A DNA stretch of 28,475 bases, taken from an uncultured Thermococci archaeon (GTDB lineage Archaea; CAYQAE01; CAYVLA01). Below, piece by piece: positions 659-16,121 of the stretch (position 1 is the stretch's first letter; the number at the start of each line of letters is the position of its first letter). The stretch spans positions 1 through 28,475 of the forward strand of contig CAZJVP010000085.1 in NCBI GenBank assembly GCA_964549615.1, written 5' to 3'. The notes under the pieces were generated by a model. The model made no database searches and was not told the DNA's origin. It was given only the letters and a program-made list of their open reading frames with translations. The position numbers and the translations under genes were made by a program.

Positions 659-1348
659 TCAGTCAATCTTCTTCCCCAAGATCGCCACCTGCTCTATGAG
701 CGTCGCGGCCTTCTCCACGCGGATCTCCCTCTCCAGTGCGTAGCGGAGGCGGATCTTCGTCGCCTTAGTCTCCTCCTCAATGCTGCCTGCTATCGGTTTC
801 AGATCGGTGCCTCTGGCGGCAAGGTCGGCTTGAGCGACCAGAAGCGCCTTCAGCACCCTCTCGGCCAGCGCATCAGCCTCCGTCCTGGAGTGCCCCCAGA
901 CGTCGATGATATAGGTCGCCTTGATCTTTAAGCCCTTCAGCGTGGTGACGGCGTTGCGCGGCAGGTACTCGACGAGGATGTTGTTCTTCTCCCTTGTGGG
1001 AGGGACGCGGAAGGACACGGAACCGGCGCGGTAGTCGGTGCTAAAGTCCCTTCCCTCAACGAGAAGCGTCCCGGGGGGATACTGAACCTTAACGCTCCTC
1101 GGGAGGGGCTTCTCCTTGAGCTTGAAGGAGGTCTGGGTCCCAGTTCCGCTGAACTTTTCCGCCGCTCCGGGTTGACGTTCCTCGACTTCCTCTGCCAGGC
1201 CGGAGCTCTCGAACTCAAAGCCGGCATTGGAGATGGCTAGGCCGGGCAGCTTTGAGGGCGTCGCTCCCAAGGTCATCGCGCCCTTGGGCAGCTCGACGAG
1301 CGCTGCTTCGAGGACCCTTATGATTTCCTCCTCGAATTCCCTGAGCAA
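659..1348 (-). CDS. Putative tail terminator / sheath cap protein (Pvc16/Afp16- or gp15/gpU-like) with an inserted beta-rich module
   Basis: N-terminal helix followed by a PxLAIS strand; C-terminal 'YIIDVWGHSRTEADALAERVLKAL' strand-helix typical of tail terminator folds; last gene of the tail operon; TTG start. Confidence 0.6.
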   Translation of the reverse strand: MLREFEEEIIRVLEAALVELPKGAMTLGATPSKLPGLAISNAGFEFESSGLAEEVEERQPGAAEKFSGTGTQTSFKLKEKPLPRSVKVQYPPGTLLVEGRDFSTDYRAGSVSFRVPPTREKNNILVEYLPRNAVTTLKGLKIKATYIIDVWGHSRTEADALAERVLKALLVAQADLAARGTDLKPIAGSIEEETKATKIRLRYALEREIRVEKAATLIEQVAILGKKID

Positions 1349-1361
1349 TCCGGTCCCCCGT

Positions 1362-2015
1362 CTATGCCTTCGACGGCGTTATCCTGGATTTCATGTGTAT
1401 GACGTTTCCGATCCTTGGCGTGCACTCGGGATCCGTGTTCCTGAAGGTTATGGTCAGCACTTCCTTCTGTGGGTTGGGGTTCACGATCCTGTATCTGTAC
1501 CACACGTACTCATTAGGTGCCAAGAGGTATTCCACGTAGGGGTTGCTTGCCCCCTTGGGCCTCAGCTTGGAACGATCGTGGACGAACAGTTCGCCCACCG
1601 CGTGCTGGGTTCCGTCCGCGTAATCGAGCACGACTTGCAAGGCCTTCTTATCCCCATTCTCCGCCCCGGCCCAGTAATCGATGGAATCAACGTACGAGAC
1701 TATTCCGAATCTGCAGATCTCGCCGGTCTTCCCCTTCTCGAGGAGCCATTGCTTTGTCAGCAGCCCGACGGTTGGCGCCTCGTAGCTTGCGCTCTCTCCT
1801 GGCATGACTTGGTTGAGTTCATATGAGGTGCCCACTGGGCTGGCGATGTTGAGCAAGGTCGTGGTCTCCTGCAAGCTGTCGACGTAGTCCCTGAGGGCCT
1901 TCAGGTTGCGCTCCAGTTCCTGCAGGTCTGATTTCAGAGTTTCCTGCATCTTGTTCCAGTCTTCCGACCTAATCACGTCGCCCGGTTTCTTTACGATCGG
2001 TTCAAATTCCACCAT
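1362..2015 (-). CDS. Putative short tail fibre / receptor-binding protein
   Basis: N-terminal 'KKPGDVIRSEDWN' motif resembling baseplate-anchoring N-termini of CIS fibres, a coiled coil (aa ~23-50), and a beta-rich C-terminal domain ending 'WYRYRIVNPNPQKEVLTITF'. Lies directly after the wedge genes. Confidence 0.55.
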   Translation of the reverse strand: MVEFEPIVKKPGDVIRSEDWNKMQETLKSDLQELERNLKALRDYVDSLQETTTLLNIASPVGTSYELNQVMPGESASYEAPTVGLLTKQWLLEKGKTGEICRFGIVSYVDSIDYWAGAENGDKKALQVVLDYADGTQHAVGELFVHDRSKLRPKGASNPYVEYLLAPNEYVWYRYRIVNPNPQKEVLTITFRNTDPECTPRIGNVIHMKSRITPSKA

Positions 2016-2022
2016 CTACACA

Positions 2023-2940
2023 CTACCCCACGGTTCTGACCGCCGCGCTCACGCCGGCGGCTTTCATAGAGTTCACGATTCCCTCCAAGTAAGCCTTGGA
2101 CAATCCGGAGTCCCTGAGCAGGTCCGACCTAACCTGGACCTCGAAGGCTGCCGGCTTCAGCCTCGTCCACTCGAAACGTATCCTCACAGGAGGCACCCCG
2201 ACGGCGAAGGTGTGCTCGTCGAACTTGGAGCTATCGAATACGCCCACCATGGCTCCGAGCGACTCCGTGTACTCCCAGGTTGAGCCCTTACGTAGAATGG
2301 GAGGCACCTTCACCTTGTCTGGGGAGATCCGCCTCGAGACGTCCTTACCGTCCAGGGTCGCCTTGCCATCCTCTAGGACGAGCTTCCTCCCGCTCCCTAG
2401 CTTGCCGCTCAGGCTCACGTACCCTTTGGTGTCTAGGTTCGAAAGCTTCGGGTCGCTCACCTCCCCGCCCTCCTCCACGCTGAGCGTTATGGTCGGACGG
2501 ACGTCGGATATGCTTCTGCTTCTGAGCGTCCAGGTCTCTCCCGCCCTGACTACGAACTCTGCCGAACATGGGGCGGGGGGGTTCTCGACTATCCTCACGT
2601 CCTGGTCGTCCTTCGCTCCCAACACGGCCCTGACCGCAGCCAGTATGGAGGAAAGGGTGCCTCCGCCCTTGTACTCCTCCAACGCCCTCTTCAAGCGTGC
2701 CTTGAGCTGCGGATCTTCCTCGCCTGCAAGTCGCCTGACTCCCACGAGGGCCGCTAGCCTATCTAGGTCCTGCCCGGTCGCGGCATCCACCCAGTGCGCC
2801 TTCATGACATCCGTGAGCCTGTCCTCAGCTTCGTCAAGCTGCGCGCTAACAGCCTTCAGGATTGCCGAGATGAGGGTGTTCTCTTCCCAGTGCCGATAGA
2901 ACCGCGGAAGCCTGCTGCCGATGCGATCCGCCCGGCTCAA
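2023..2940 (-). CDS. Baseplate wedge protein, P2 gpI / Mu gp48 / T4 gp7-like
   Basis: 'LPRFY...VDAATGQDLDRLAALVGVRR...EED...RLK...KGGGTLSSILAAVRAVLG' and C-terminal 'VNSMKAAGV' pattern of gpI-like wedge proteins; follows baseplate J; TTG start. Confidence 0.8.
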   Translation of the reverse strand: MSRADRIGSRLPRFYRHWEENTLISAILKAVSAQLDEAEDRLTDVMKAHWVDAATGQDLDRLAALVGVRRLAGEEDPQLKARLKRALEEYKGGGTLSSILAAVRAVLGAKDDQDVRIVENPPAPCSAEFVVRAGETWTLRSRSISDVRPTITLSVEEGGEVSDPKLSNLDTKGYVSLSGKLGSGRKLVLEDGKATLDGKDVSRRISPDKVKVPPILRKGSTWEYTESLGAMVGVFDSSKFDEHTFAVGVPPVRIRFEWTRLKPAAFEVQVRSDLLRDSGLSKAYLEGIVNSMKAAGVSAAVRTVG

Positions 2941-2944
2941 TCCA

Positions 2945-4513
2945 TCACTCCCTCAACTCGAAGCTGACGGTTATGTTCCTAGGTTCCGCCCTCTCCTCGC
3001 TGCCTATCCTGATGTTCTCCCTCTGGCTCTCAACGACCTCCTTCTCGCGGTGCGCCTTGATCACTACGTTGGTAACGTCGAGGACCTCCTGGGCCTTGAG
3101 GGCGGCATCGATGACCCTAGAGAAAAGCACGCTCTGGCCTATCCCTAGCGATGATATGTACGTCCTGATCAGCCTCTCGGCCTCCGCGGTTATCGGCAGC
3201 GCCTCCGCCGTCTTGGGAATTGTCAGGATGCATGAGACGTCCACGTAGACGGTCCGCGGCCTTGAGAACTGAACCTTCACGCCTGCCGCGCGGGTCTCCT
3301 CTATCACCCGCAGGATCTCTTCCGGGTCTCCTCCATCCACGACGACCTCGACGACGCCCTCGACCGAGTCGGGCATATCCCGGATCATGAGGGATCTGAC
3401 GCCCTCCACCGCGCGGATGGCGGACTCCAAGGATGAGACGGTCGCCCTACCTGCGAACTCCAAGGCATGTTTGGCCCTTTCCCTCAGCTCCTCGTCGGAC
3501 TCGGCTTCCACGCCGTTCGTTATGTCCGCCTTGTTTATGACGTACTCGACGCCGGGAACCGGCTGTGGCATCACCGTGATCGTCCCCGCCAGAACGTTTC
3601 CCCACCGCCCGGGCCGGTCGCAAATCACGGGGACGTCGGCTTCCCACCTTCCCTCCTGTGCGGGGCGGAGGAACGCCTCCTCGGTCGTGGTGAAGGAGCG
3701 CGTTTCCTCTGGGACTGCCGAGAAGGTCGCAACGCTCGTTCCCCTCGGCACGCGTACCTCCTGGTAGCTAACGTAGTTGACCCGGAAGACCGTCCTCAGG
3801 TCGGGCCTCTTGCCGCTCGGCAGCCACCTGAGGGTGCTGCCCGCGAGGTCGTAGTCGATGCCCCTCTCGAACACGTTCGGAGATCCGTCGAGCGTTCCCT
3901 CCACCTTGGTGATGTCCTTGACGGGCGGCTTCTTGAGCGCGTACTCGGCAGATCCATCGTAGAGGTGGACCTCCCCCGCGATGCTTGCCTTCTCCGGCTC
4001 GACGTTGCGGCCAAAGGTGACGTACCCGCTGGACGGCTGCGGCGGCTTTCTCCTCACGCCTAGCAGCGCCACGACCATGTCGAGGGCCTCGCCGGTTGCC
4101 GTGTCCACGAATCCGGAGAGGTATGCTTGGTCCATCTGTGCGTACAGGTATTCTATCTCCCTGCTGATCGCCTCTACAAGCGTTCTGAGCACGCTGCCGG
4201 GGTTTACGTCGGTTAGCCCGCCCGGCCTCGTGAAGCTGTATCTGACTTCGAATTTGGTGCCTTCATCCGGGTGGTCTGCCCCAAGCCATTCGACCGAGTT
4301 GCCAGACGGTCTGTAGTCGACGCCCTGGACAAATGCCTTCCGCACCCCCCTGTGGAGTCCCTTCACCTCGGCGATCGCCTCAACGGGCCTGTTCGAGAGG
4401 GCGTAAGACGTCCTGCCGCTCACGTAGGTGTGCTCCTCCGTCACCTCGCCCCCGGTGATCTGGAGCAGGATGTCCCTTGCGATCTGCCTGTACTCCTTTC
4501 TCCTAGGCAACAA
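2945..4513 (-). CDS. Baseplate J / gp47 / gp6-like wedge protein
   Basis: 'TDVNPGSVLRTLVEA', 'FVDTATGEALD...LGVRR', 'PGRWGNV', 'NGVEAESDEELRER', 'RAAGV' motifs of the Baseplate_J family; tandem TTG start codons at 4513/4510. Confidence 0.93.
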   Translation of the reverse strand: MLPRRKEYRQIARDILLQITGGEVTEEHTYVSGRTSYALSNRPVEAIAEVKGLHRGVRKAFVQGVDYRPSGNSVEWLGADHPDEGTKFEVRYSFTRPGGLTDVNPGSVLRTLVEAISREIEYLYAQMDQAYLSGFVDTATGEALDMVVALLGVRRKPPQPSSGYVTFGRNVEPEKASIAGEVHLYDGSAEYALKKPPVKDITKVEGTLDGSPNVFERGIDYDLAGSTLRWLPSGKRPDLRTVFRVNYVSYQEVRVPRGTSVATFSAVPEETRSFTTTEEAFLRPAQEGRWEADVPVICDRPGRWGNVLAGTITVMPQPVPGVEYVINKADITNGVEAESDEELRERAKHALEFAGRATVSSLESAIRAVEGVRSLMIRDMPDSVEGVVEVVVDGGDPEEILRVIEETRAAGVKVQFSRPRTVYVDVSCILTIPKTAEALPITAEAERLIRTYISSLGIGQSVLFSRVIDAALKAQEVLDVTNVVIKAHREKEVVESQRENIRIGSEERAEPRNITVSFELRE

Positions 4514-4930
4514 CTACTCCACCTCCAGACGGAGAGGATAGACGACCGTCAACGGCCTCTGACTGCCGATCGGCACCACGCTGATATCGATGTCCACGCG
4601 GCTTGGGTCTTGAGGGTTGGCTGTTACCCTGATTCCCCTGATCTCCGCGATTCTGGGTTCTTCGGACAGACATCGCTCCACGAGGTTCCTGATCATCACC
4701 CTCGTCCTTTCATTGTTGGGTTCCCCGATCACCTGGTAGAGACCTGAGCCGTAGTCCGCATGGCCCGTGTCGGTTAGTTCGCCCTGATCGGTCGCAAGCC
4801 TGTGGATTATTGCCTGCGCCAGGTTTTCTTCGCTAGCGATCGTGTCAAGATCCCCTTCAGCCGTGGCCAGGTCGGCGCCGGCACGCTCGAACTTCAGCCT
4901 CAGGTCCCTTCCCAATCCTTCTTCGCTCAT
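4514..4930 (-). CDS. Baseplate gp25 / GpW-like sheath initiator
   Basis: 'ENLAQAIIHRLATDQGEL...HADYGSGL...IGEP...L..EPRI' is the gp25/GpW pattern; 138 aa; sits between spike and J. Confidence 0.92.
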   Translation of the reverse strand: MSEEGLGRDLRLKFERAGADLATAEGDLDTIASEENLAQAIIHRLATDQGELTDTGHADYGSGLYQVIGEPNNERTRVMIRNLVERCLSEEPRIAEIRGIRVTANPQDPSRVDIDISVVPIGSQRPLTVVYPLRLEVE

Positions 4931-4941
4931 GGGCTTCCTCC

Positions 4942-5736
4942 CTAGTTGATGCTAACCACGCTCCCCCGTATGATCAAGGGTCCGTCGCAGGTGTAGCTGG
5001 CTGCCTGCTTTGCCTTTGCCGTCAGGGCCATCTGGGATTCGATGTTGAGCATCATCTGGGCCTTGATCTCCGCGTTCTGGTCCGATTCGATCTTCACGTC
5101 GGAAGAGTGGATCTTCATCTCGGTTCCCGATTCGAGTTCCAAGGCCTTTCTGCTGTTTATCTCGATGCTTGACGCCGCAAGCGTTATCTTCCCCTTCGAT
5201 CTCAGCGAGGCATCCCCTCCCGCCTTAACGGTCACCTTCCCTTTGGCCTCCACCACGACATCTCCATCCTTCTGGATCCTCACCGTTGTTTCTCCAGCAT
5301 TGAGGCTGACATCTTCGTCCGTGATGGTCAGGTACATGCCGTCAGGAAACTCGAGATAGATCCTGCGCACATCGGGGTTCTTAGCATGGGGTGCGACGTA
5401 TACGATCTCCTCTCCACGGTTCACGGGCGGTCTGTCCTCGTCGTTGTACAATCTGCCAACCACGATGGGCTGGTTGATGTCGCCGGCCACGAAGACCAGG
5501 AGCACCAGATCCCCCACCCGTGGAATGCCGGCGAGGCCGATCACCTGGGTGGCGATCTGAACCTTCCTCAGCTCGACATCGAGCCTCTTGAGGCGCACAT
5601 CGCACTGGTAGTTATCCTTGTCGTCCCTGTCCGAGTGAGGATAGATGTTCGTCACCACGCCGAGCTCGGGCATGCGAAGCTTCCTCAACTCCTCATGGGC
5701 GATCCCCTTGACCGCCTCGACGATGTCCATGTTCAT
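4942..5736 (-). CDS. Baseplate central spike (GpV / gp5 OB-fold plus beta-helix)
   Basis: 'LGVVT...IPRVGDLVLLVFVAGDINQPIVVGRLYN' gp5/GpV OB-fold motif, followed by ~8-residue beta-helix repeats ending 'IRGSVVSIN'. Confidence 0.92.
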   Translation of the reverse strand: MNMDIVEAVKGIAHEELRKLRMPELGVVTNIYPHSDRDDKDNYQCDVRLKRLDVELRKVQIATQVIGLAGIPRVGDLVLLVFVAGDINQPIVVGRLYNDEDRPPVNRGEEIVYVAPHAKNPDVRRIYLEFPDGMYLTITDEDVSLNAGETTVRIQKDGDVVVEAKGKVTVKAGGDASLRSKGKITLAASSIEINSRKALELESGTEMKIHSSDVKIESDQNAEIKAQMMLNIESQMALTAKAKQAASYTCDGPLIIRGSVVSIN

Positions 5737-6704
5737 CCTCCTGCCTTCCTTCGCCCGCGAATCGTCGTGGTGAACCCGGTGGTCTTGCTCAGGTGGTGTT
5801 CCACGCAGATGATCTGCGATTCACCATTCATTGAACGGGCTGGTGCGTTGTTGATTTGGATAGCGTCTCCCACCCGGATCTCGGGCCTTCCCACAGCCTC
5901 GATCGCGGTCGCCGAGGCATAGCGCATCCTTTCGAATATGGCCCTCGCGACCTGTTCGGCCGTCCGGCGATCCTTGACGGCTGCCACGCTCACGCTCACG
6001 ACCTGTGCTGCCCCGGCCTCTCCCCTGACGTCCTGCTTGGTTAGCCACGAATCGGTCTCAGACCCTTTGAAGCTCGCAGGGCTCTCACCGCTCACCCTCG
6101 CGCCGGCGTAGGCCACCTCCATGTCCGACGCCGAGAGCGCGATTATGTCCTTCCCGTACTCCAAGGTGTGGGTTTGATCGGCCGCCCATGCCTTGAAGAT
6201 GAGTTGGCCGTTCTCGTCAGCGTAGGTGTCGAAGTTGCACAGGGTAGCGAGTCTGAGGATGTGCTGGTATGCACTCGCTCCATCATCGATCACGTAGGCG
6301 GGCAGATGGATTCCGTCGGATGCTTGCTTGACCTTTACGCCTCCCTCTTCGGCCAGGTTTCTGACTATCTTGCCAGCGGTCTGGTTGGAATAGGCTCTGT
6401 TCAACCTGAGGCGCAAGAGGGCCGCGCTTGGATCAAGCGCAGTGATCCTGAGGTGGTCGATCCGATGGTCGATGGCGTCGATGAAACCCGTGAAGACGAG
6501 CTTGGGACTGCCATCGTAGCCCAAGCTGACCTTCACCTCATCCCCGGTTGCGAAATCGTGCATTTCGTTGGATGCAAGTCGGATCTCCGAGCTATCCACG
6601 GGCAATCCCATGCCCTTGGTCGTCACTATCTCCAAAACGCTGTCCTCATCGCCGGAGCTGAAGGTCTTTGAACCGATCTGGACTGAATAGCTTGGGCGAA
6701 GCAT
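5733..6704 (-). CDS. Baseplate hub protein (gp27 / P2 GpD / Mu gp44-like, VgrG N-terminal equivalent)
   Basis: 'GDEVKVSLGY...VFTGFID', 'ITALD', 'QTAGKIVRNLA', 'DENGQLIF', 'GRPEIRVGDAI...VEHHLSKTTGFTTTI' pattern; 4-nt overlap with the spike gene. Confidence 0.9.
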   Translation of the reverse strand: MLRPSYSVQIGSKTFSSGDEDSVLEIVTTKGMGLPVDSSEIRLASNEMHDFATGDEVKVSLGYDGSPKLVFTGFIDAIDHRIDHLRITALDPSAALLRLRLNRAYSNQTAGKIVRNLAEEGGVKVKQASDGIHLPAYVIDDGASAYQHILRLATLCNFDTYADENGQLIFKAWAADQTHTLEYGKDIIALSASDMEVAYAGARVSGESPASFKGSETDSWLTKQDVRGEAGAAQVVSVSVAAVKDRRTAEQVARAIFERMRYASATAIEAVGRPEIRVGDAIQINNAPARSMNGESQIICVEHHLSKTTGFTTTIRGRRKAGG

Positions 6705-6708
6705 TTGG

Positions 6709-7212
6709 CTAGCCTCCAGCGGTCTTTAGATCTGAGTAGATACGGTGAATCTTGCGCTGAACCTCGCTCTTGGCGAGCCCGTCCTGGCGGGGCGGCTCGG
6801 TCTCCCCAGGTCCCTTCGGGGGCCTATGCTCCCTCAGGACGAGCGAGTACCGGCTGCCAGAGGGGGCTACGTTGTCGAAGGTCGTCGAGAAACTCTCTAT
6901 GACGACCTCGGTGATGTCGGTAAGGGGCTCGATATCCGAGGAGAAAGCGACGGGCTTTCCCAGCTCGAACTTGGATCTGAGGGCGTTCAGGGTATCTCTG
7001 GTGCCGGGCCCCACCAGCTCGCCCTGAAAGCTAATCTGAAGCGGGTCCCTGCCGAGATCTTGGAAGACGTTGCTCCTTGATCCTGGGATCTTGAGTTCAA
7101 CTATCCGTCTTCTGCCCGAAACCGAGAGGCTTACGATCGTGCGCAACTCCTTGATGACTCCGTCCTGGTCAACCCTCTTGGTCAACTCGACATCGTCAAG
7201 CTTCATCCACAT
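6709..7212 (-). CDS. Putative tube initiator (Mu gpN / DNA_circ_N, P2 gpU, gp48/54-like), no LysM domain
   Basis: 'RRIVELKIPG...VFQDLGRDPLQISFQGEL...VVIESFS...YSLVLRE' tube-like fold pattern; positioned between the TMP-position gene and the hub. Confidence 0.7.
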   Translation of the reverse strand: MWMKLDDVELTKRVDQDGVIKELRTIVSLSVSGRRRIVELKIPGSRSNVFQDLGRDPLQISFQGELVGPGTRDTLNALRSKFELGKPVAFSSDIEPLTDITEVVIESFSTTFDNVAPSGSRYSLVLREHRPPKGPGETEPPRQDGLAKSEVQRKIHRIYSDLKTAGG

Positions 7213-8886
7213 CTAGAAAGCCTCCTGAAGACGGGTGGTGCCATAATGGCGCCGGATCTGGTCGGAAAGGATCCTCGATATCTTTCTTTCGAGGTCCCTG
7301 AGGTCCTCTTCCTGAGCTTCGCCGGACAGCAGCGTAACGTTCAGCGTCCTCGGGCTTTCCGGCGTCACCGTGCGTAGGCTCGGCCGGATCACGGGCGTCC
7401 CTAGCTTCCAGCTGCGCGTTCCAAGCGAAGGCTCCGGAGCGCCCACCACTGCGGTCTGACGTAACGCGGTCGCGCCCAAGGGACCGTAAGTCGGTCTGTA
7501 GCCGAGCGAGCCAATCACCCACGAGGGCTGTGATAGAAGGGCGCTGGCCCCAACCGAGCGCAGAGCCTGTCGGACGCTTTCGATCGCCTGCGCCCCGATC
7601 ATCGCCATGGAGGATGCAGCATATGCCTGTTCGAGTGAGGGTGCCGTCACCAAGCTGTAGGTTGCAAGCGTCGCCATGGGCAAAATCTCGGCCAATGGTG
7701 TGTAGGTTGCAAGCGTCGCCATGGGCAAAATCTCGGCCAATCGTGCCCGCGCCAAAATTTCCCGGATGGGAAACAGGGACACCTCCAGCGCGCTGGCAAG
7801 GGTGCAGGGTTCGCTGCCCACGGTCCGCGACAGGTAACGGAGGATTTCGGCCGTGCCACCCTCGATGTGGGCTATTGCCGAGAGCGCCGAGACCTGTATG
7901 CCCTCATGGCGCATCGGGCTTCCACGGGGGCCGGGCGCCGCGTCCAAGTGCGCCAGTTCTTTCCCATCCGGCGCCGACTGAAGGGCGCTTGTAAGCGGAG
8001 GCTGTGCAGGCTCTGGCGTGGGGGCGCCCATCCGGGTTGCACCTAGGTCCGCAGGAGAGCCGGGCCGCAAGGCTCCTTTCCCTCCACGGGGGATTCCTAC
8101 GGATGCGGACTCGGCTGGGGTCAGTTCGTGCGGGGGGATAGGTCTTGGCCCCAGCCTGCGCAGGGGTGCCACGTCACTCGTTCTCCCTCGTACGTGGCCC
8201 CTCCGCGTTTGCGGAGCTGCATGGCGGCCTTCGAATGGACTTGCCGCCTCTGACACATATCGCGCTGCCCGGGCGACGGGCAGAGCAAGGGGCGCAGCAG
8301 CGGCCACGGCTGGCAGGAAGAGGGGCCGGGCGATTCGGATCGCGGGCCCCGATGGCTTCGAGCCGGTCGGAACGGCCCGCTTCCTCGGGGCGTCCGCCTG
8401 TGTTGGGCCTAGGCCGCGACCTTCTCCAAGCGTGGGACCAGGCGGCTCGGTAGCGATCTCCCTGGGGACGGCAACGGGCAGAGGGGGAATGAGAAATTTT
8501 GGAGCCCTGGCATGTGTCCTTCGAGCCACGTCAGCCGCCAGCTTCCTCGTGGCAGAAATGCGTACCAGGAAAGACGGACCGTATCTGGGAAGTTCGTCCT
8601 CAGCCTCGGGCTCCTGTGTTCGGCCCGCCCTTCCTAACCAAGCGGGTAGCAGAGGGATGGGCGAGAACATCGGCAGGGAGATCCGAGCGAAGAATCCTCG
8701 GATTCGCAATATGCTGCTTATCGCCCCGGCCAGGGAGCTGAATGCCTTGGAAATGAGAGCTGAGAGGGACCAAAGGAACCTGACCGGTTCCGCGATTCTC
8801 CGCCAAAGCCCGCGAGCGTAGTCCTGGCTGCGTGCCGCCACGCCAAGGACCCTTGCCGGGAGGCTGTCCGCCATGCTCTCACCCAA
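7213..8886 (-). CDS. Pro/Ala/Arg-rich low-complexity protein at the tape-measure position (putative TMP or lumenal cargo)
   Basis: 557 aa; lies between the chaperone pair and the tube initiator; C-terminal 'LNVTL...DLRDLERKISRILSDQIRRHYG' strand-helix resembles TMP C-termini; stop codon abuts the next ATG. Alternative ATG start at 8874. Confidence 0.55.
   Translation of the reverse strand: MGESMADSLPARVLGVAARSQDYARGLWRRIAEPVRFLWSLSALISKAFSSLAGAISSILRIRGFFARISLPMFSPIPLLPAWLGRAGRTQEPEAEDELPRYGPSFLVRISATRKLAADVARRTHARAPKFLIPPLPVAVPREIATEPPGPTLGEGRGLGPTQADAPRKRAVPTGSKPSGPAIRIARPLFLPAVAAAAPLALPVARAARYVSEAASPFEGRHAAPQTRRGHVRGRTSDVAPLRRLGPRPIPPHELTPAESASVGIPRGGKGALRPGSPADLGATRMGAPTPEPAQPPLTSALQSAPDGKELAHLDAAPGPRGSPMRHEGIQVSALSAIAHIEGGTAEILRYLSRTVGSEPCTLASALEVSLFPIREILARARLAEILPMATLATYTPLAEILPMATLATYSLVTAPSLEQAYAASSMAMIGAQAIESVRQALRSVGASALLSQPSWVIGSLGYRPTYGPLGATALRQTAVVGAPEPSLGTRSWKLGTPVIRPSLRTVTPESPRTLNVTLLSGEAQEEDLRDLERKISRILSDQIRRHYGTTRLQEAF
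7656..7741. repeat. Two exact 41-bp direct repeats with a 45-bp period (in-frame duplication)
   Basis: tgtaggttgcaagcgtcgccatgggcaaaatctcggccaat at 7656-7696 and 7701-7741; encodes LAEILPMATLATY twice on the minus strand. Confidence 0.97.
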
Positions 8887-9091
8887 CCTTCTCCTCTTCG
8901 TCTTCTGTCACGACGATTCTCGTCACGCCCTCCGCGGTGGGTGCCATTGCCCTCGCTTGCTCAGCCCGATATGACAACGCACCGGTGAGAAAGAGGATCT
9001 GATCCCTCGTCAGGTCGGCCGGATGGTTCGCGAGCTTATATCCGCAGTCCAAGCACAGAGCAGCTAGCTCTATTCCCTCGGGACTCCTCAC
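8879..9091 (-). CDS. Tail assembly chaperone second part (gpT-like), probably the -1 frameshift extension of the upstream chaperone
   Basis: 70 aa ORF ('GYKLANHPADLTRDQILFL') in the -1 frame of the upstream gene, open back to the A9 run (adds LEIEKF before the GTG). The GTGA overlap would also allow independent coupled initiation. Confidence 0.7.
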   Translation of the reverse strand: MRSPEGIELAALCLDCGYKLANHPADLTRDQILFLTGALSYRAEQARAMAPTAEGVTRIVVTEDEEEKVG

Positions 9092-9465
9092 GAACTTCTC
9101 GATTTCAAGTTTTTTTTTCGCGCTGTGGCGTCGGTGACGCCGCTGAGTTCGAGGACTTGCATGCCGATGAACTCCGGCACCCCGAACTTCATGCTCGCCA
9201 CTTCCTCGAGCGATAGCTTCGGATCCTCAAGGCCCATCGCTGCAGCCATCCTTAAGGCCTCTAGGTTCTTCTTTATGTCGACCTGGCTCAGGTCTGGAGT
9301 TCCATCCTCCTTCAGCGGAACGTTGCCTATGACCGCAAATATCGAAGATAGCTCACCGTCGGTGAGGGGGCGTATCACGACCTCTGCCCCGCCGTATTCC
9401 TTCAACGTGAGGGTAGCCCTGATCTTCGAACCCTCGAGGATGGCCTGCTTGGTCAACCTAGCCAT
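9088..9465 (-). CDS. Tail assembly chaperone (gpG-like), 125 aa
   Basis: ATG at 9465 (MARLTKQAIL...) 2 nt after the tube stop, with a GGGAG SD. 'EVVIRPLTDGEL' and 'KLSLEEV...' chaperone-like pattern; ends in a KKN slippery site; lies between tube and TMP position. Confidence 0.75.
   Translation of the reverse strand: MARLTKQAILEGSKIRATLTLKEYGGAEVVIRPLTDGELSSIFAVIGNVPLKEDGTPDLSQVDIKKNLEALRMAAAMGLEDPKLSLEEVASMKFGVPEFIGMQVLELSGVTDATARKKNLKSRSS
9109..9118 (-). other. Slippery sequence CG-AAAAAAAAA-C (A_AAA_AAC heptamer / A9 run), candidate -1 recoding site
   Basis: Minus strand reads GCG CGA AAA AAA AAC TTG...TGA in frame 0. The -1 frame continues CTT GAA ATC GAG AAG TTC GTG AGG into ORF 8879-9091. 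Confidence 0.75.
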
Positions 9466-9467
9466 GC

Positions 9468-9869
9468 TCACTGCTCCCTGAGCCGCGTGCCGGTGAACGT
9501 ATAGTCGCTGATGCCGACGCCATTTGCGTCCATGGAGAACACCTTGCCCTCCAGGTAACACTCATCAAACGAAAGCGTCTTGATCGACTTTCCTCCTTTC
9601 TTGAGTTCCACCACGAGTTGGAACGGCTTTACCTCCGCGACCCCGGTTATGAGCATGGTGTCGAACTTCGGATAGGTCGACCTGACCCTCAGCGTCCCTT
9701 CAACGTACATGGGCCCGTAGTCCACGCCCACACGCTCGTCGATGCCGATGTTATGGACGTTTTGCCGATTCCTGACGATCTTGTACTCTATCGCCTGGAG
9801 ACCGGGTATGATGTCTCCATCCACCTTCACGTTGCTCACGTTCGCCGATATGATAACGGGATCCGCCAT
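9468..9869 (-). CDS. Tail tube protein (gp19/Hcp-like)
   Basis: 133 aa beta-rich protein immediately after the sheath; 'YVEGTLRV', 'TLSFDECYL', 'YTFTGTR' tube pattern; GGAGGTGA SD 6 nt before the ATG at 9869. Confidence 0.82.
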   Translation of the reverse strand: MADPVIISANVSNVKVDGDIIPGLQAIEYKIVRNRQNVHNIGIDERVGVDYGPMYVEGTLRVRSTYPKFDTMLITGVAEVKPFQLVVELKKGGKSIKTLSFDECYLEGKVFSMDANGVGISDYTFTGTRLREQ

Positions 9870-9884
9870 CTCCAATCACCTCCC

Positions 9885-11249
9885 CTAGGCTTGGACGGTT
9901 ATGGTCGCGTACACGTAGTCCATCGCCCGGACCGGCCTGACGGCGATGTCGACCCTCACTATTCCCTGCGCGAAGTCCAGCTCGGACGAGTAGACGTCAA
10001 CCAGGAACGGCGGCTCCTTGCCGTCGACGCTTGGCACGATGGACTGCTCGCGCTCCATCGTGAGGAAGAACTCGATCAGCTTCTCCCTCAGGGCGGTCCG
10101 CCCGCCCGGCGTATTGAGTGTGCCGATGAAGTTCTCGCACACGTTCTTCGCCCCCCTGACGGCGTGGTCCGCGATCCTAGTTACGCTTATCTGCTCCTTG
10201 CTCGTCGAGATCCCCTTCTCCACGATTATGCCCCTGCCTTTTCTCGCCTCGAGGGCAAGGATGCCGGCCTTCAACAGTTCCATCAGCTGGGCGGGGGTGT
10301 ATCGAGTCTCAAGGTCGGCGATGCCGGTTATCGCCTTGAAGGTTGGCGATTCGTAGTAGTTTAGTTTGCTGACCAAGCCCGCGACCGCGCCTGAGACGCC
10401 GTAGGGCGCAACAAGCACGAACCTGTCGGACGCCAGGGTGGATGTCCTCTTGACGATCTCCTCGACGGGCTCTCCAGGCCCCACCGTCCCGATCCCGATC
10501 CTGTTTTTGGCGTCCTTGCTCATGTTCTGGCAGTGGGCGTCCACGAGGGCGTGAACCTTGGGATCCCAAGAATCGCACGCGGAAACCATGTCCACGTCCT
10601 CCTCGATCTCAAGCATCTCCAAGGCAGACTCGTAGTCCTTCATCTTCGGCTGCGCCGTGGTGCCGCCGGCCAACGATACCTCGCCCAGGGAGGGCATCAG
10701 GGTCTTGGGGGGCTTCGACGGCTTGGTGAGGTCCTTTGCAGAGACGAGGGTGGAGTTCGCATTCAGGACCTTGACCGCATACAGGTCGCTTCCCGGGTCC
10801 ATGACGAGGTTGTCCCAAACCTCAAAGACCACCCCGTTGGTCACCTGGAACATGAAGGTATCCTTGCTGGAGCCTTTCAGGACGCTCAGCCTGATCTTGT
10901 TTCCGACCTCGCCGGGGGCCTTGGATTGCAACCCAAGCAGGTTCTCGTTGTTATCGTTCTTCAGGGTTGCCGAGGCCGCCTGACCGCCCTCAGCCTCGAT
11001 TCTCGTCGCGTACACCTCAAAGACGCCGTTCAGGAAGCAAAGTCTCGCGTCCTTCACCAACGAGTAGGTCGGATCAGCTCCGAACTTCTCGGTCAGCTCT
11101 CGGTAGCTCGTTACAGGGATCGGCTTGAGCACCGGTCCCTTCTCGGCCGTCCCTATCAGCCCCACCACGCCTGAGGGATGGAGCTGTTGCGGCACGATCT
11201 CTTTGATTACTTGGATCTCCACGCCAGGCAGAATCCTCGCCAAGGCCAA
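9885..11249 (-). CDS. Contractile tail sheath protein (gp18 / Afp2-4-like)
   Basis: 'LPGVEIQ', 'GLIGTAEKGP..KP..VTSY.E....FG', 'FLNG...VYATRI', 'PGEVGNKI', 'LAGG', and C-terminal 'VRVDIAVRPVRAMDYVYATI'. TTG start at 11249 or 11243. Confidence 0.95.
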   Translation of the reverse strand: MALARILPGVEIQVIKEIVPQQLHPSGVVGLIGTAEKGPVLKPIPVTSYRELTEKFGADPTYSLVKDARLCFLNGVFEVYATRIEAEGGQAASATLKNDNNENLLGLQSKAPGEVGNKIRLSVLKGSSKDTFMFQVTNGVVFEVWDNLVMDPGSDLYAVKVLNANSTLVSAKDLTKPSKPPKTLMPSLGEVSLAGGTTAQPKMKDYESALEMLEIEEDVDMVSACDSWDPKVHALVDAHCQNMSKDAKNRIGIGTVGPGEPVEEIVKRTSTLASDRFVLVAPYGVSGAVAGLVSKLNYYESPTFKAITGIADLETRYTPAQLMELLKAGILALEARKGRGIIVEKGISTSKEQISVTRIADHAVRGAKNVCENFIGTLNTPGGRTALREKLIEFFLTMEREQSIVPSVDGKEPPFLVDVYSSELDFAQGIVRVDIAVRPVRAMDYVYATITVQA

Positions 11250-11278
11250 CTCCCTCGAGCGAAGGCGTCCCTATCTTC

Positions 11279-11294
11279 CATTTAAAGTTTGCCC
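11279..11294 (-). promoter_or_regulatory. Putative archaeal BRE/TATA promoter of the tail operon
   Basis: Minus strand GGGCAAAC-TTTAAATG, an AT-rich island in GC-rich DNA about 37 nt upstream of the sheath start. Confidence 0.6.
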
Positions 11295-11496
11295 GGACGA
11301 TTAGCAATCCAGGATAAACTGTTCGCGGCATTCGCCAAAGTGAGTCTCGTTCTTGCAAAATTTCGCAGCCGGACGCAATCGCGATACCATGCGCTGAGGC
11401 CTGACCGCGCAGCGGGTCTCGACTCGGCTTAAGCGACCGGCTGGCTCGGGGACCGGGATAGTCTGCTCGCGCGTGATACAGTGAGTCATAGTAACT

Positions 11497-11512
11497 CAAT
11501 AAGATTTATTAG
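11497..11512 (+). promoter_or_regulatory. Putative BRE/TATA promoter of the ABC substrate-binding protein gene
   Basis: CAATAAGA-TTTATTAG about 50 nt upstream of ATG 11559, which has a GGAGG SD; preceded by a TGAGT-N7-ACTCA inverted repeat (11482-11498). Confidence 0.5.
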
Positions 11513-11558
11513 AGAGCTAGCGCTGGGATGGGCCCACCATTGGCAGGAGGGTGCGAGA

Positions 11559-12761
11559 ATGGGTGAAGAAGCTTCGAAGCCGTCTGCTAGGACCGTAGGT
11601 ATTCCGGTTCTAGTCCTAGCGGTCGTGATCGTCGCTGTGATTGCAGCTTTGGCGGTCTATGTCGCGGTCAAACCCGGAGAGGAGAAGGCCGAGAAGGGAC
11701 CAATCAAGATAGGGGCCATAATGTGTTTGTCCGGGGAGCTCGGCCCCGTTGGGCCTGGCCTTGTGGAGGGAATAGAGCTTGCCGTCTGGGAGGTTAACCA
11801 GAAAGGCGGGATCCAGGGCAGGCAGATTGAGCTGATAGTGGAGGACGAGGAGACCACGCCGACGAAAGCCGTCGAGGTTGGCAGCAAGCTGATCGACATC
11901 GATGGGGTGAAGGTCATCATCGGCCCCATGATCTCGCCAAGCGTGCTATCCTTGGCGAACAAGTCCAGCGCCTCCAAGGTTGTGCTGATAAGCCCATCCG
12001 CCACAGCCCCGAGCGTCACCGACGCGGGCGAGTGGGTATTCAGGGTTTGTCCGACGGACTTGGTGCAAGCCAAGGCCTTGGCTGACCTCGCGAAATTCAA
12101 GGGATACACCAGGGTCGCAACCCTAGTCGTCAACAACGACTATGGCGTTGGCCTGGAGGAGGGCTTCAGCAAGAACTTCGAAGGCGAGGTTGTGGCAAAG
12201 GTCAGGTTTGAGTCCGGGAAGGCAGACTACAGGACGGAGTTGGACACGATAAAGGCCAAGCAGCCGGACGCGGTCATGCTGGTCGCGTACCCGGAGAGCG
12301 GAACCGTTATCCTCAAACAAGCCGCCGAACTCAAGATGGGCTTCCAGTGGCTCGCTGCTGAGGGCATAGCTGATGCGGTGATGCTTCAGAGGCCTGAGAT
12401 AATCCCCGAGTTGGAGAAGACGCTTTTCACCAAGCCCAGGAGCGTCAAGGAGACGGTTGCCTACAGGCATTTCTTGGAGCTGTTCAAGCAGAAGTACCCG
12501 GGGAAGGAACCGGGCATCTATGCAGACTACGCCTACGATGCAACAAGGATGGCGATCATGGCCATAGCATACGGAGGGAACGATGGCGAAGGCATCAAGA
12601 ATGCCCTGTACCTTGTGGGCGACCACTACAAGGGAGCAAGCGGGGACAAGACCTTTGATGTCAACGGCGATGTCAGTGCCGACTTCGACATCCTGGCGGT
12701 GAGGAACAACCAGATGGTGTCGGTTGGAAGCTGGATCCAGGGCGTCGTGACCCTGACGTAG
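11559..12761 (+). CDS. livK: Branched-chain amino-acid ABC transporter substrate-binding protein (LivJ/K family), N-terminal TM anchor
   Basis: 'IKIGAIMCLSG', 'NQKGGIQGRQIELIVED', 'ISPSATAP', 'FRVCPTD', 'NNDYGVG', 'YAYDA'. True start is likely ATG 11559 after GGAGG. Confidence 0.9.
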   Translation: MGEEASKPSARTVGIPVLVLAVVIVAVIAALAVYVAVKPGEEKAEKGPIKIGAIMCLSGELGPVGPGLVEGIELAVWEVNQKGGIQGRQIELIVEDEETTPTKAVEVGSKLIDIDGVKVIIGPMISPSVLSLANKSSASKVVLISPSATAPSVTDAGEWVFRVCPTDLVQAKALADLAKFKGYTRVATLVVNNDYGVGLEEGFSKNFEGEVVAKVRFESGKADYRTELDTIKAKQPDAVMLVAYPESGTVILKQAAELKMGFQWLAAEGIADAVMLQRPEIIPELEKTLFTKPRSVKETVAYRHFLELFKQKYPGKEPGIYADYAYDATRMAIMAIAYGGNDGEGIKNALYLVGDHYKGASGDKTFDVNGDVSADFDILAVRNNQMVSVGSWIQGVVTLT

Positions 12762-12873
12762 GAGTCCCACGTCACCAATCTGCGCGTAGGTAGCGGACCG
12801 TAGCCAGTGCATTTCGGGCAGATCCGCGGGTAGATTCGGATCAGCGAAAGCCTAGGTGTTAGAACCAGCCTGA

Positions 12874-13752
12874 GTGCGCCCAGCTACCGCGAAGGGAGGT
12901 GCTAGGATCGCTAAGGTAGCGTTGCCAGGAGACGAGCGAGGACCGGAGGTCGGCATATCGCTGCTTGCGGACGACTGTGCGAGCTACAACTCGGTTGGGA
13001 TCTTAGCCGAACACGGACTTTCGGCCCTCGTCGAATTCGGAGGGCAGCGCGTGCTCTTCGACACCGGCCAGTCATGGGTCTACGCAAGGAATGCCAAGGC
13101 CATGAAGGTCGACTTGAACTCCGTCTCAATGCTTGTGATCAGCCATGGGCACTACGACCATACGGGAGGTCTGCCGCGCTTCCTTAGAATTGGCAAGGAG
13201 AATCGCGTCTTGGTGGCCCACCCGGATGCGTTCGAGACGAAGGTCACCAAGAACGGGAGGAAGGTCGGCTGCCCGATTCCGCTCGAGGTCGTGGCGAGGA
13301 GCTTTCGCGTACGCCTCATGGAGAGAACCCGACGGATTGCGAAGGGCGTTTACTTCCTGACGGGCTTGGATAGGAGGCATGAGGATCCGGGCACGGTCGT
13401 CTTTCATCTTAGGAACGGAAGGCGTGAGCCGGATCCTGTCCTCGATGACTCGTCCCTTGTCCTCAAGACGGAGAAGGGCTTGGTCATCGTCTGCGGATGC
13501 GCCCATGCGGGGATGCTAAACATAGTGAACGAGGCAACGGAGCTACTTGCTGACGACATCTACGCTCTTGCCGGAGGATTCCACCTCCTGCACGCCTCGG
13601 ACGGAAGGATCAGGGCCCTCCTAGAAAGGCTGAGGGAGCTCAAGGTTCAAAAGATCTACCCGTGCCACTGCACGGGGCTACGTGCGACGTTTCGAATGCA
13701 GACTGGCCTCGGGGCGGAGAAGGTTGGCTGCGGGGATCGGATTCGAATCTAG
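12874..13752 (+). CDS. MBL-fold metallo-hydrolase (MJ0301-like dihydropteroate-synthase-type subfamily)
   Basis: 'AEHGLS', 'LFDTG', 'SHGHYDHTGG', 'GCAHAG', 'GGFHL', 'PCHCTG' motifs. Start uncertain, possibly further downstream. Confidence 0.85.
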   Translation: MRPATAKGGARIAKVALPGDERGPEVGISLLADDCASYNSVGILAEHGLSALVEFGGQRVLFDTGQSWVYARNAKAMKVDLNSVSMLVISHGHYDHTGGLPRFLRIGKENRVLVAHPDAFETKVTKNGRKVGCPIPLEVVARSFRVRLMERTRRIAKGVYFLTGLDRRHEDPGTVVFHLRNGRREPDPVLDDSSLVLKTEKGLVIVCGCAHAGMLNIVNEATELLADDIYALAGGFHLLHASDGRIRALLERLRELKVQKIYPCHCTGLRATFRMQTGLGAEKVGCGDRIRI

Positions 13753-14456
13753 GCATTGAGCTCCCGGCCCAGATACAGCCTGCCTATGCGTTCGTGATCC
13801 AGTATCTCCTTGCCCGTCCCCTCGTAGGCCTTGGTGCCCATCACCATGACGTATGCCCTGTCGCATATGGCAAGCGACTTCTTGGCATTCTGTTCCACGA
13901 GCAAGATGGATGTCCCGTTGTCCCTGATCTCTTGGATCTTGGCCATTATGTGCGAAACAAGGGCGGGGGAAAGGCCCGCCGTGGGTTCGTCCAGGAGGAG
14001 CAGCTTGGGATCCGTCATCAGCCCGCGAGCGACTGCGACGGCCTGGCGCTCGCCTCCGCTGAGGTTGATGGCCTTGGTGTCCTTCTTATCCTTGAGAAGC
14101 GGGAATATCTCAAAGACCCTCTGTATGCGGTCATCGCACTCCTTTAGGGTATAGGCGCCCATCTCCAGGTTCTCCATAACTGTCAGGCTCGGAAAAACGT
14201 TGTCCAGCTGAGGAACGTAGTTTATCCCCTGCCTGACGATCCTGTGTGGGCTGAGGCCCGAGATCTTCTTGCCCTCGAGCAGCACCTCGCCCTTCGTCGG
14301 CTGTATAAGGCCGAAGATGGTCTTCATCAAGGTGCTCTTGCCTGACCCGTTGGGGCCGATGATTACGACTATCTCGTCCCTCTCGACGGCGAGGTCCATC
14401 CCTCGCACGATGGTCATCTTGCCGTATCCCGATGACAGGTCCGTGACCTGAAGCAC
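13749..14456 (-). CDS. livF: Branched-chain amino-acid ABC transporter ATP-binding protein
   Basis: Walker A GPNGSGKS, 'YVPQ..NVFPSLTVMENLEMGA', LSGGE signature, LLDEP, VEQNA. Confidence 0.93.
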   Translation of the reverse strand: MLQVTDLSSGYGKMTIVRGMDLAVERDEIVVIIGPNGSGKSTLMKTIFGLIQPTKGEVLLEGKKISGLSPHRIVRQGINYVPQLDNVFPSLTVMENLEMGAYTLKECDDRIQRVFEIFPLLKDKKDTKAINLSGGERQAVAVARGLMTDPKLLLLDEPTAGLSPALVSHIMAKIQEIRDNGTSILLVEQNAKKSLAICDRAYVMVMGTKAYEGTGKEILDHERIGRLYLGRELNA

Positions 14457-14459
14457 GAG

Positions 14460-15215
14460 CTAGCCTCCGAGGTAGGCCTCGATCACCTTGGGGTTGTTCT
14501 GGATCTCAGCCGGGGTCCCCTTGGCAACGACCTCGCCCTTGCTCAACACGTAGATCGTCTCGCAGAAGTCCATGACTATGTCCATATTATGCTCAACGAC
14601 TAGAAAACTCATTCCTCCGTTCCTGAGCTCCACGATCTTCTGGAATATCTTCCTTGCCAAGGTCGGGTTCACGCCGGCTACTGGTTCGTCCAAGAGGATC
14701 ATGAGGGGCTCGACCATGAGCGACCGGCCAAGTTCCAGAAGCTTTTGTTGGCCGCCCGAGAGATTCCCAGCATACTCGTTCCTCAGGTGGTCGATCTCTA
14801 GAAACCGCAGGAGCTCGAGGGCCCTCCTCACGAGTTCTTTCTCCTCGGCAAGCACTCTCGGCCAGCGGGTAAACACCTTGAACAGGGCCTCCCCAGACTG
14901 GCCCCGTGGGGCAACCAGCATGTTCTCGAGGACCGTCATCCTTCGGAAGACTCGCACGATCTGGAAGGTCCGGACGAGTCGTCTGGCGGCGATCTCGTGT
15001 GGCCTGAGATCGGAGATATCCTCGTCTCTGAAGATCACCCTGCCCCCATCCGAGCCGTACTCGCCAGTCACCACGTTTATGAGTGTGGTCTTGCCCGAGC
15101 CGTTCGGCCCAATGAGGCCGACGATGGTTGACGGCTCCGCCTCAAGCGATACCCTATCAAGGGCCCGAAGACCGCCGAAGCTCTTGCTAACGCCCTCAAC
15201 CTTCAGGATGCTCAA
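14460..15215 (-). CDS. livG: Branched-chain amino-acid ABC transporter ATP-binding protein
   Basis: TTG start at 15215 overlapping the livM stop (TTGA); 'KSFGGL', GPNGSGKT, 'RTFQ', LSGGQ, 'LDEPVAG', 'VEHNM', 'VIEAYLG'. Confidence 0.92.
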   Translation of the reverse strand: MSILKVEGVSKSFGGLRALDRVSLEAEPSTIVGLIGPNGSGKTTLINVVTGEYGSDGGRVIFRDEDISDLRPHEIAARRLVRTFQIVRVFRRMTVLENMLVAPRGQSGEALFKVFTRWPRVLAEEKELVRRALELLRFLEIDHLRNEYAGNLSGGQQKLLELGRSLMVEPLMILLDEPVAGVNPTLARKIFQKIVELRNGGMSFLVVEHNMDIVMDFCETIYVLSKGEVVAKGTPAEIQNNPKVIEAYLGG

Positions 15216-16117
15216 CCGGCCGTCACCTTCGCCTTCCGCTCCCCCAAGACACCCTCGGGCCGATACATCAGGAAGATGATCATGAGCAGACCGATCACGG
15301 CCCAACGTAGGTTGGCCTGAGCCCCGGGCGAGATGTTCACCAAGTCCTTGAGAACCCGTGTGGATCGGTCGAAAATCTGGATCAGGAAGGCACCCAATAT
15401 GGCCCCGTAGTTGTTGGCGGTCCCGCCCACGATCAACATCGTCCAGACGGAAAAAGTCAGCAAGGGCATGAACATGTCGGGGCTCACGAAGGACGTGTAG
15501 TGCGCAAAGATGCTTCCTGCCGCGCCTGCCATGCACGATCCCAAGACTAGGGCCCGGGTCTTGAAGGAGAAGACGTCCTTGCCCAGCGCCTCGGTTGCGG
15601 TCTCGTCCTCCCTTATTGCTCTCAGGACCCTGCCGAAGGGCGAGTTGACGATCCGCTGTGAGATCAGGAAACACGCTCCGAGGACGGCCCACACGAGGCC
15701 CGCATAGACCAGTGGATAGCTCGTAGGCCCAAAAAACCTGGAAAGTGGCCTGGGGATGTTCCTGATGCCCATGGGGCCGAGGCCGTAGGAACTCTCGTTT
15801 AGAAGCACCAACCTCACTACCTCGGCTACCGCTATGGTGGTTATGGCGAGGTAGTCCTCCCTGAGCTTGAGAGTGGGAATTGCGATGAGGAAGCCTAGCA
15901 AGCCCGCGACCAAGATGGCTCCCGCAAGGCCCGCCAAGAAAGGCGCGCCCGAAACCGTGAGGAGAGCGGAGACATACGCCCCCACGGCGAAGAAGGCCAC
16001 CTTCCCGAAATTCATGAGCCTGGTGTAGCCCGCCTCCAAGTTCAGGCTCAGGGAAAGCAGGCCGAAGATGCCGACGTAGGTGAGCGTGTCGGCCATGTAT
16101 CCGATCAAGGAAACCAT
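15212..16117 (-). CDS. livM: Branched-chain amino-acid ABC transporter permease
   Basis: 'SLNL..GYT.LMNFG..AFF.VGAY', 'LKLREDYLAI.T', 'SPFGR.LRAIREDE', 'RPEG'. Confidence 0.92.
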   Translation of the reverse strand: MVSLIGYMADTLTYVGIFGLLSLSLNLEAGYTRLMNFGKVAFFAVGAYVSALLTVSGAPFLAGLAGAILVAGLLGFLIAIPTLKLREDYLAITTIAVAEVVRLVLLNESSYGLGPMGIRNIPRPLSRFFGPTSYPLVYAGLVWAVLGACFLISQRIVNSPFGRVLRAIREDETATEALGKDVFSFKTRALVLGSCMAGAAGSIFAHYTSFVSPDMFMPLLTFSVWTMLIVGGTANNYGAILGAFLIQIFDRSTRVLKDLVNISPGAQANLRWAVIGLLMIIFLMYRPEGVLGERKAKVTAG

Positions 16118-16121
16118 CTGT

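Follow-up and report, generated by a model that had tools for sequence, protein, structure and literature searches.

A conserved poly-A run joining two frames of a putative tail-assembly chaperone in headless archaeal tail clusters: a candidate site of transcriptional slippage

Recoding of the G/GT type is textbook knowledge for tailed phages, and gpE/gpE+E' of P2 and gp41/gp42 of Mu are the contractile-tail counterparts of gpG/gpGT of lambda. Here we analyse an archaeal locus of similar layout, in which ORF1 and ORF2, a pair of open reading frames (ORFs) that overlap, meet at a run of nine A's (A9) within a cluster of contractile-tail genes. The locus lies on contig CAZJVP010000085.1 of an uncultured archaeon; this whole contig of 28,475 nucleotides (nt), part of a 3.21-Mb, 99.46%-complete genome, is called the window below. 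According to the available text of the cited work, lambda-type G/GT genes are overlapping ORFs located between the tube and tape-measure genes, with a slippery sequence in the overlap (PMC5009743). Among the tailed viruses of haloarchaea, the same sources give predicted -1 shifts for HVTV-1 and HCTV-1/2/5, that of HCTV-2 on A_AAA_AAC, and a predicted +1 shift for the myovirus HSTV-2 (PMC5009743, PMC8211752).

The available part of a 2021 review names one experimentally established archaeal -1 frameshift, in a Sulfolobus fucosidase, in addition to the halovirus predictions, and lists no characterised transcriptional slippage in Archaea (PMC8211752). Programmed transcriptional slippage is described, in the accessible text of two papers, for dnaX of Thermus thermophilus and for A9/T9 runs of insertion sequence (IS) elements (PMC1088944, PMC3711429); nine is also given there as the length at which selection against coding A/T runs shows in many genomes (PMC1088944). 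For the contractile injection systems (CIS) of haloarchaea, the portion of the report at hand states that no tape-measure homologue is present and mentions neither a chaperone nor a frameshift (PMC11566945). We found no paper describing an archaeal tail cluster of the present type or a poly-A chaperone site.

The junction between the two ORFs in the window is made up of the following elements:

9465-9088, minus strand: ORF1, the putative short (G-like) chaperone form, 125 amino acids (aa), from ATG 9465 to the stop TGA at 9090-9088
9118-9110, minus strand: the A9 run (T9 on the plus strand), the proposed shift site, with C at 9109 as the next base
9118-8879, minus strand: ORF2, the putative -1-frame (T-like) part, 76-79 codons after the shift, ending at the stop TGA at 8881-8879
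9086-9046, minus strand: a local stem-loop, specific to the window and probably not part of the signal

The 3' end of ORF1 reads GCG CGA AAA AAA AAC TTG AAA TCG AGA AGT TCG TGA, and manual reading of the sequence places A_AAA_AAA as well as A_AAA_AAC in the phase of ORF1. A GTG at 9091, in the downstream ORF, overlaps the ORF1 stop as GTGA; since 9465 is 0 and 9091 is 1 modulo 3, the downstream ORF is in the -1 frame. This frame has no stop between 9226 and its end at 8879, shares 136 nt with ORF1 and is translated from the A9 run onward as KKKLEIEKFVRSPEG... A shift of frame within the run gives a predicted fusion of 195 aa. Decoding without a shift leads to a stop 19 nt past the run, after a tail of 7 non-conserved aa. 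The first-pass annotation of this DNA, made from the sequence, had described the ends of the ORFs, the A9C run with its in-frame heptamer, the open -1 frame and the 195-aa fusion, and all of its coordinates proved correct.

Homologous loci were collected to see how far this arrangement is shared. Besides the window, the pool contained 102 loci (103 sources in all): 21 found by the ORF1 search in species-representative archaeal genomes, one IMG/VR contig and 80 metagenome contigs. Of these sources 99 could be evaluated; L021 is N-masked at the site, and L059, L094 and L097 end before the ORF1 stop. The carriers among the species-representative genomes belong to Hadarchaeota, Bathyarchaeia, Nitrososphaerota, Methanoperedens, Methanocella, Methanoregula and other Methanomicrobiales. 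Among 40 other sampled archaeal genomes, ORF1 was present only in two of the three that come from the window genome's own family. The window genome and the genome carrying L001 (Candidatus Hadarchaeota) are of the same genus.

Where ORF1 meets ORF2, 99 of 99 loci have a run of A's, and its length is nine in 79 of them, ten in 12, seven in five, eleven in two and six in one. Thus 93 runs contain at least nine A's, when seven are enough for a heptamer. In no locus (0/99) do ORF1 and the downstream part share a frame: relative to ORF1, the latter is at -1 in 77 loci and at +1 in 22. Conservation of the slippery site, which the first-pass annotation had named as a check, was found, and a recoding site at the run, for which it had named ribosome or polymerase as the agent, is supported. 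The -1 relation is not constant, as it gives way to +1 at the same run in those 22 loci. The frame to be entered opens inside the run in 55 of the 99 loci, because the base preceding the run is a T that makes TAA; the smallest permitted shift window is 10 nt. The base that follows the run is G in 93 loci, T in five and C in the window only, and this G, read in the target frame, belongs to a Lys or Arg codon of a conserved basic junction (KKK/KKR). A Shine-Dalgarno-like GGAGG stands upstream of the run in some loci and not in the window.

The ORF1 family is conserved through ...LELSGV; a linker that varies then leads to the KKK encoded by the run. In the downstream protein, conservation begins with the first post-run residue (mean column identity 54%, 30 sequences), and the zero-frame tails past the run, 1-14 aa long, are mutually unrelated across loci. 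No start codon (ATG, GTG or TTG) occurs between the opening of the target frame and a conserved SPEG motif in 55 of 84 distinct junctions; in 21 all such starts lie past the run, where a conserved Met or Val is encoded, and eight have one upstream. Independent initiation cannot explain the family.

Public metagenomes also contain two natural in-frame fusions. P0121 (190 aa) keeps the Lys run, with the junction ...AKKKRLALE..., and P0133 (265 aa) lacks it and has an N-terminal extension. These proteins serve as natural controls, indicating that a fused protein is viable. By contrast, lengths are confined to 118-141 aa in the best 120 of 328 ORF1 relatives, 19 of 22 matches to the ORF2 part are of 45-81 aa, and the listed homologues are all annotated as short hypothetical proteins; gene callers split or shorten the genes of this pair. 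Altogether, a programmed change of frame at the run, yielding a short and a long protein, is very probable from the comparison of the loci.

Relative to ORF1, the run occurs in each of the three codon phases; the encoded residues therefore vary (RKKN, KKK, QKKS) while the nucleotides stay constant. In the 1029 long ORFs of the window genome AAA represents 14.8% of the Lys codons (2905/19595), and none of 37 KKK triplets in its long ORFs is written AAA-AAA-AAA. Outside the run, 385 of the 1014 Lys codons of ORF1 and ORF2 (38%; 89 distinct loci) are AAA. The run is selected at the nucleotide level. The 3.21-Mb genome contains two A/T runs of nine and none longer, for 2.7 expected under independent base draws; a single A9 is not rare by itself, and its constant placement at the junction is far beyond chance. 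The only other A/T nine-run of this genome, a T9 at C101:93786-93794, follows a stop codon, looks intergenic and appears unrelated. Other long homopolymers of the genome include a G11 at C102:5169-5179 and a C10 at C88:25279-25288, both in regions open in several frames.

To compare the length of the run in the window, four sequencing runs were examined as Logan contigs, two of which (X3 and X4) gave diverged relatives or short pieces, uninformative on run length. The contig of the probable source run has A9 without a gap at depth 33, and that of a second study, which covers 8941-9141 at depth 4.2 and extends only 23 nt beyond the run, is identical and also has A9. Contigs from two studies thus speak against the misassembly of a true A10 that the first-pass annotation had considered. 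Run length is also uniform in every one of 13 groups of loci (30 loci) that share their 30-nt flanks, some of which may be one data set deposited twice.

What the two proteins do is suggested by profile matches and by gene order. The ORF1 product of the window matches phrog_344, 'tail assembly chaperone', with E 1.1e-4; the same family matches 18 of 24 ORF1 family members, with a best E of 9.7e-6 and over residues 1-44 only. A second chaperone family, phrog_14268, matches five of the 24, and no other PHROG family was matched. In a language-model Atlas the clusters of PF06222 (Phage_TAC_1) are the nearest named ones, beside the archaeal clusters of the family itself, which we take as a lead only. 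Pfam gave no match for ORF1, ORF2 and the 24 family members (nothing below E 0.09), a PDB sequence profile search gave none at E up to 10, and tblastn of ORF1 against 50,697 phage records gave none. The pair sits between a tube-like and a tape-measure-like gene, and its second ORF overlaps the first without a conserved start of its own. Position, two-frame architecture and chaperone profile matches make a G/GT-type chaperone the best reading, and the ORF1 and ORF2 products are probably tail-assembly chaperones. The two overlapping chaperone ORFs between tube and tape-measure positions, which the first-pass annotation had proposed on G/GT logic, are thus supported by the locus comparisons and the gene order.

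In such a system a fraction of expression would change frame in the run and give the 195-aa long form, sharing its N-terminal domain with the short form. If lambda gpG/gpGT and P2 gpE/gpE+E' are taken as models, the N-terminal domain common to both forms would coat the tape-measure-like protein, and the extra C-terminal domain, with its acidic tail end, would recruit tube subunits. Neither form would be expected to stay in the finished tail. The partners proposed for the two domains are thus those expected from lambda.

The mixture of frame relations bears on the machine that slips. On a tree of 93 rows, with six evaluable loci with short parts left out, the frame relation changes at least six times, and four of these changes are forced by well-supported branches. 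When the frame labels were shuffled, 19 changes were needed on average and none of 500 shuffles was as low as the observed value. The +1 state is passed down within clades that comprise 2-8 rows, one of them including a complete Methanocella chromosome (L016), which carries the +1 form of the junction. A single G directly after the run distinguishes L006 (+1) from its close relative L044 (-1). With 22 of 99 loci in the +1 frame, the logic of the heptamer is not what selection keeps. The motif A_AAA_AAG is an efficient slippery motif in bacteria; it is never in phase in any -1-type locus.

A stimulatory RNA structure was looked for around the run. The weak hairpin 7 nt downstream, named in the first-pass annotation, has a folding energy of -0.8 kcal/mol (z +1.06), which is negligible, and no conserved structure across relatives supports it. 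The longer stem proposed about 23 nt downstream does exist in the window: 9086-9046 folds at -19.6 kcal/mol (z -2.32), a stability reached by 4 of 200 shuffles. It is not kept in relatives, where 53.2% of cells pair versus 52.4% in shuffles (49 junctions). The 110 nt downstream of the run in the window fold no better than chance (z -0.23). RNAalifold, applied from -30 to +110 nt around the run, gave a consensus of -0.17 kcal/mol with two pairs, thus no conserved structure.

Of a canonical -1 ribosomal signal the locus has the in-phase heptamer; a conserved nearby structure and a constant direction were not found. What is expected of transcriptional slippage, an A/T homopolymer of about 8-9 or more kept against codon preference, is present. 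The frame flips, the lack of conserved structure and the minority status of AAA among Lys codons together favour slippage of the RNA polymerase, since a polymerase that adds or drops an A explains the flips, the absent structure, the runs of at least nine and the missing in-phase A_AAA_AAG. RNA polymerase slipping on A9 would produce some mRNAs with one extra A (A10), which would join ORF1 and the -1 part in the window; in +1-type relatives, the frames would be joined by mRNAs that lack one A or carry two extra. We consider it somewhat more probable that most of the shifting is done by the polymerase than by the ribosome, and both may contribute. To the whole explanation, a G/GT chaperone pair in a headless tail cluster with polymerase slippage at the run, we assign a probability of roughly 0.55. 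If it is true, slippage in both directions would have allowed the downstream frame to flip several times with the long form kept. That this is the first programmed transcriptional slippage site in Archaea, at which A9 sets the ratio of short to long form and the -1/+1 flips preserve the latter, is an evenly balanced proposition. A fixed ratio of isoforms is the first-pass annotation's own inference.

The strongest alternative, and the option put first in the first-pass annotation, is ribosomal frameshifting, by -1 on A_AAA_AAA or A_AAA_AAC in the window and by -2, +1 or poly-A sliding in the +1-type relatives, which would yield the same two chaperones. Several observations weigh against our reading. 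Runs of seven (five loci) and six (one locus) A's, which occur in -1-type loci only, are short for a slipping polymerase and are better explained by a shift of the ribosome, and the -1-type loci with at least seven A's, the window included, all hold A_AAA_AAA in phase. Tandem -2 slippage or sliding of the ribosome on poly-A is sterically possible in every +1-type locus, and the window does have, about 23 nt past the heptamer, a stem-loop of moderate stability (z -2.32). No characterised archaeal transcriptional slippage was found in the literature, where the supplementary frameshift clusters of PMC3711429 might hold archaeal entries. The haloarchaeal virus G/T genes, in the available text, are predicted to use -1 shifts, one of them on A_AAA_AAC, and in HSTV-2 a +1 shift (PMC5009743). 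On the side of function, the profile matches behind the chaperone call are weak (E 1e-4 to 1e-5, residues 1-44) and the tape-measure call is positional only. The possible double deposition among the identical-flank groups also counts here.

Ribosomal frameshifting nevertheless has to account for the 22 of 99 loci that need the other direction at the same run, with at least four to six switches, and for the two A's beyond the heptamer, which are kept in every phase. The in-phase A_AAA_AAG is absent from the -1-type loci, and no stimulatory structure is conserved. The usual spacer between heptamer and structure is shorter than about 23 nt, so that the stem of the window begins beyond it. We consider ribosomal frameshifting a possible but less probable account, and slippage of the polymerase remains the reading that we prefer.

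The absence of any recoding is very improbable. ORF2 would then be a 70-aa protein of its own, with GTG 9091 as the start codon used in termination-reinitiation at the overlapping GTGA, a layout that is shared by the closest relatives, L001 and L023-L026; this GTG is, in the window, the sole start codon of the -1 frame ahead of the SPEG motif. However, it is also the Val codon of a conserved F-V, written GTC, GTT or GTA in other loci, and conserved residues, including the nearly invariant Phe, lie between the run and this Val, upstream of the GTG. The ORF1 stop is 2-31 nt from the run across loci, so the stop/start overlap is not conserved, and the 55 of 84 junctions without a start argue in the same direction. 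Equally improbable is an artefact or a switch at the DNA level, namely a miscalled homopolymer in a single fused ORF or a tract made phase-variable by replication slippage: homopolymers are error-prone and mutable, P0121 is an in-frame relative that still has the Lys run, and contigs can hide minority variants, making low-level phase variation possible, but no assembled locus is in frame, run length is uniform within identical flanks, two studies agree on A9, and the +1 and -1 states form clades.

The pair belongs to a myovirus-like tail cluster that spans 11249-659 on the minus strand and occurs as a single copy in the genome. The other parts of this cluster are:

9885-11249, minus strand: tail sheath gene, 454 aa, the first gene of the cluster (Phage_sheath_1, E 1.2e-19; phrog_279, E 2e-52)
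9468-9875, minus strand: tube-like gene, 135 aa, so called by its position directly after the sheath
7213-8886, minus strand: tape-measure-like gene, 557 aa (from TTG 8886) or 553 aa (from ATG 8874), so called by position and length variation
659-7212, minus strand: remainder of the cluster, assigned by Pfam and PHROG matches, with an order kept in related loci

The genes at 659-7212 code for a 167-aa protein resembling DUF6046/DNA_circ_N, a gpD-like hub, a gpV-like spike, gpW/gp25, baseplate J and a gpI/Mu gp48-like protein, together with two unassigned genes. The order sheath, tube, ORF1, ORF2, long variable gene, hub, spike, gp25 and J is conserved among the loci. For the tube-like gene, Pfam gave nothing and PHROGs a single match at chance level; it is conserved beside the sheath and ORF1 in 20 of 21 genome loci, the contig of L020 starting at ORF1. 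The sheath match is the only one in the genome, and in a tblastn search of the 50,697 phage records the sheath found six distant bacterial-phage matches (25-28% identity). The last gene of the cluster (659-1348, minus strand, 229 aa) has a weak match to a 'tail terminator' family, phrog_123 (E 8e-4), and lies after the baseplate genes, an unusual place for a terminator.

The tape-measure-like gene has its start a few nt from the stop of ORF2 and codes for a protein rich in proline, alanine and arginine. Its homologues range from 498 to 1124 aa, with only the C-terminal ~50 aa conserved, and the copy in the window contains an in-frame 45-bp tandem duplication at 7656-7745 (two copies, 97% alike). 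In position, length variation and duplication the gene behaves like a tape measure. No Pfam match was obtained for the window protein and 16 homologues, and the PHROG search on the same 17 proteins gave one short chance-level hit (E ~1e-3) to one homologue. Thus, of the tape-measure identity proposed by the first-pass annotation, the position and variable length fit, and neither a Pfam match nor a usable PHROG match supports it. Two Nitrososphaerota loci that are closely related differ in this gene: L009 (6589-9960) has it as a single ORF of 1124 aa, L008 (6589-10034) as two ORFs of 661 and 460 aa. The cause of the split may be a frameshift or an error of assembly, or else another recoding site.

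The components of a headless contractile tail, namely sheath, tube, hub, spike, gp25 and baseplate J, are present. A search of the genome for four head families (Phage_capsid PF05065, Phage_portal PF04860, Terminase_6C PF17289 and TerL_ATPase PF03354) gave no match, with the sheath found as a positive control. Within about 4 kb upstream of the sheath in 18 genome loci, none of 48 ORFs of at least 120 aa matched a head, portal or terminase family; these ORFs are assorted cellular genes that differ by lineage. With no match to these head families and with cellular flanks, a cellular, headless tail machine is a fair description. In the window the flanking gene at 20-595 belongs to the 2'-5' RNA ligase family, and the flanking ORFs from 11481 resemble an ABC-transporter operon, as read from their translations without a family scan. 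The neighbours at the sheath end differ within the genus: the window has, at 11250-17054 and again as read from translations, a substrate-binding protein and the ABC operon-like genes, and L001 has an ABC-2 transporter pair and a 520-aa unknown at 1-4220. This difference suggests that the cluster is mobile or lies in a region that varies.

Very few cases document recoding in Archaea, and the site described here is conserved in about a hundred loci over several archaeal phyla. Because the loci are widely conserved and include cultured genera such as Methanocella, programmed poly-A slippage in Archaea becomes directly testable, and the mix of -1 and +1 relations at one homopolymer is a natural experiment on the mechanism. 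The headless tail cluster is itself poorly described in these archaeal lineages. What sets the locus apart from the known cases is the combination of one chaperone family, headless clusters of non-halophilic archaea, an invariant homopolymer and repeated -1/+1 flips; the last two features make a transcriptional mechanism likely.

Like R-type tailocins and contractile injection systems of the extracellular kind (eCIS), including the haloarchaeal CIS, the locus is a capsid-less contractile tail cluster in a cellular genome. According to the available text (PMC11566945), it shares with them sheath, tube, hub, spike, gp25 and baseplate J. Unlike in these comparators, no AAA+ ATPase was found among the 13 cluster proteins scanned, and the gene order is P2/Mu-like. 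With lambda, P2 and Mu the locus has in common two overlapping ORFs, the second of them startless, products that would share an N-terminal domain and a slippery overlap. It differs from them in that a nine-base homopolymer rather than a heptamer of fixed phase is conserved, in that the second frame is -1 or +1 depending on the relative, and in its archaeal hosts, its lack of virus head genes and its weak similarity, at profile level only, to known chaperones.

The tailed viruses of haloarchaea, as far as the cited texts at hand describe them, resemble the locus in working with archaeal machinery and in having chaperone recoding predicted in both the -1 and +1 directions, and the heptamer of HCTV-2 is that of the window. 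They are, however, complete viruses with varied heptamers, in contrast to the invariant poly-A run in headless clusters of non-halophilic archaea. The sites of Thermus dnaX and of the IS elements, in the available accounts, share with the locus a nine-A run on the sense strand that is conserved as nucleotides; there, mRNAs of mixed length give two proteins per gene, by a mechanism that works for either frame direction. Those sites are bacterial and have been shown experimentally, whereas the present one is archaeal, is proposed from the comparison of loci and would serve a chaperone of structural assembly.

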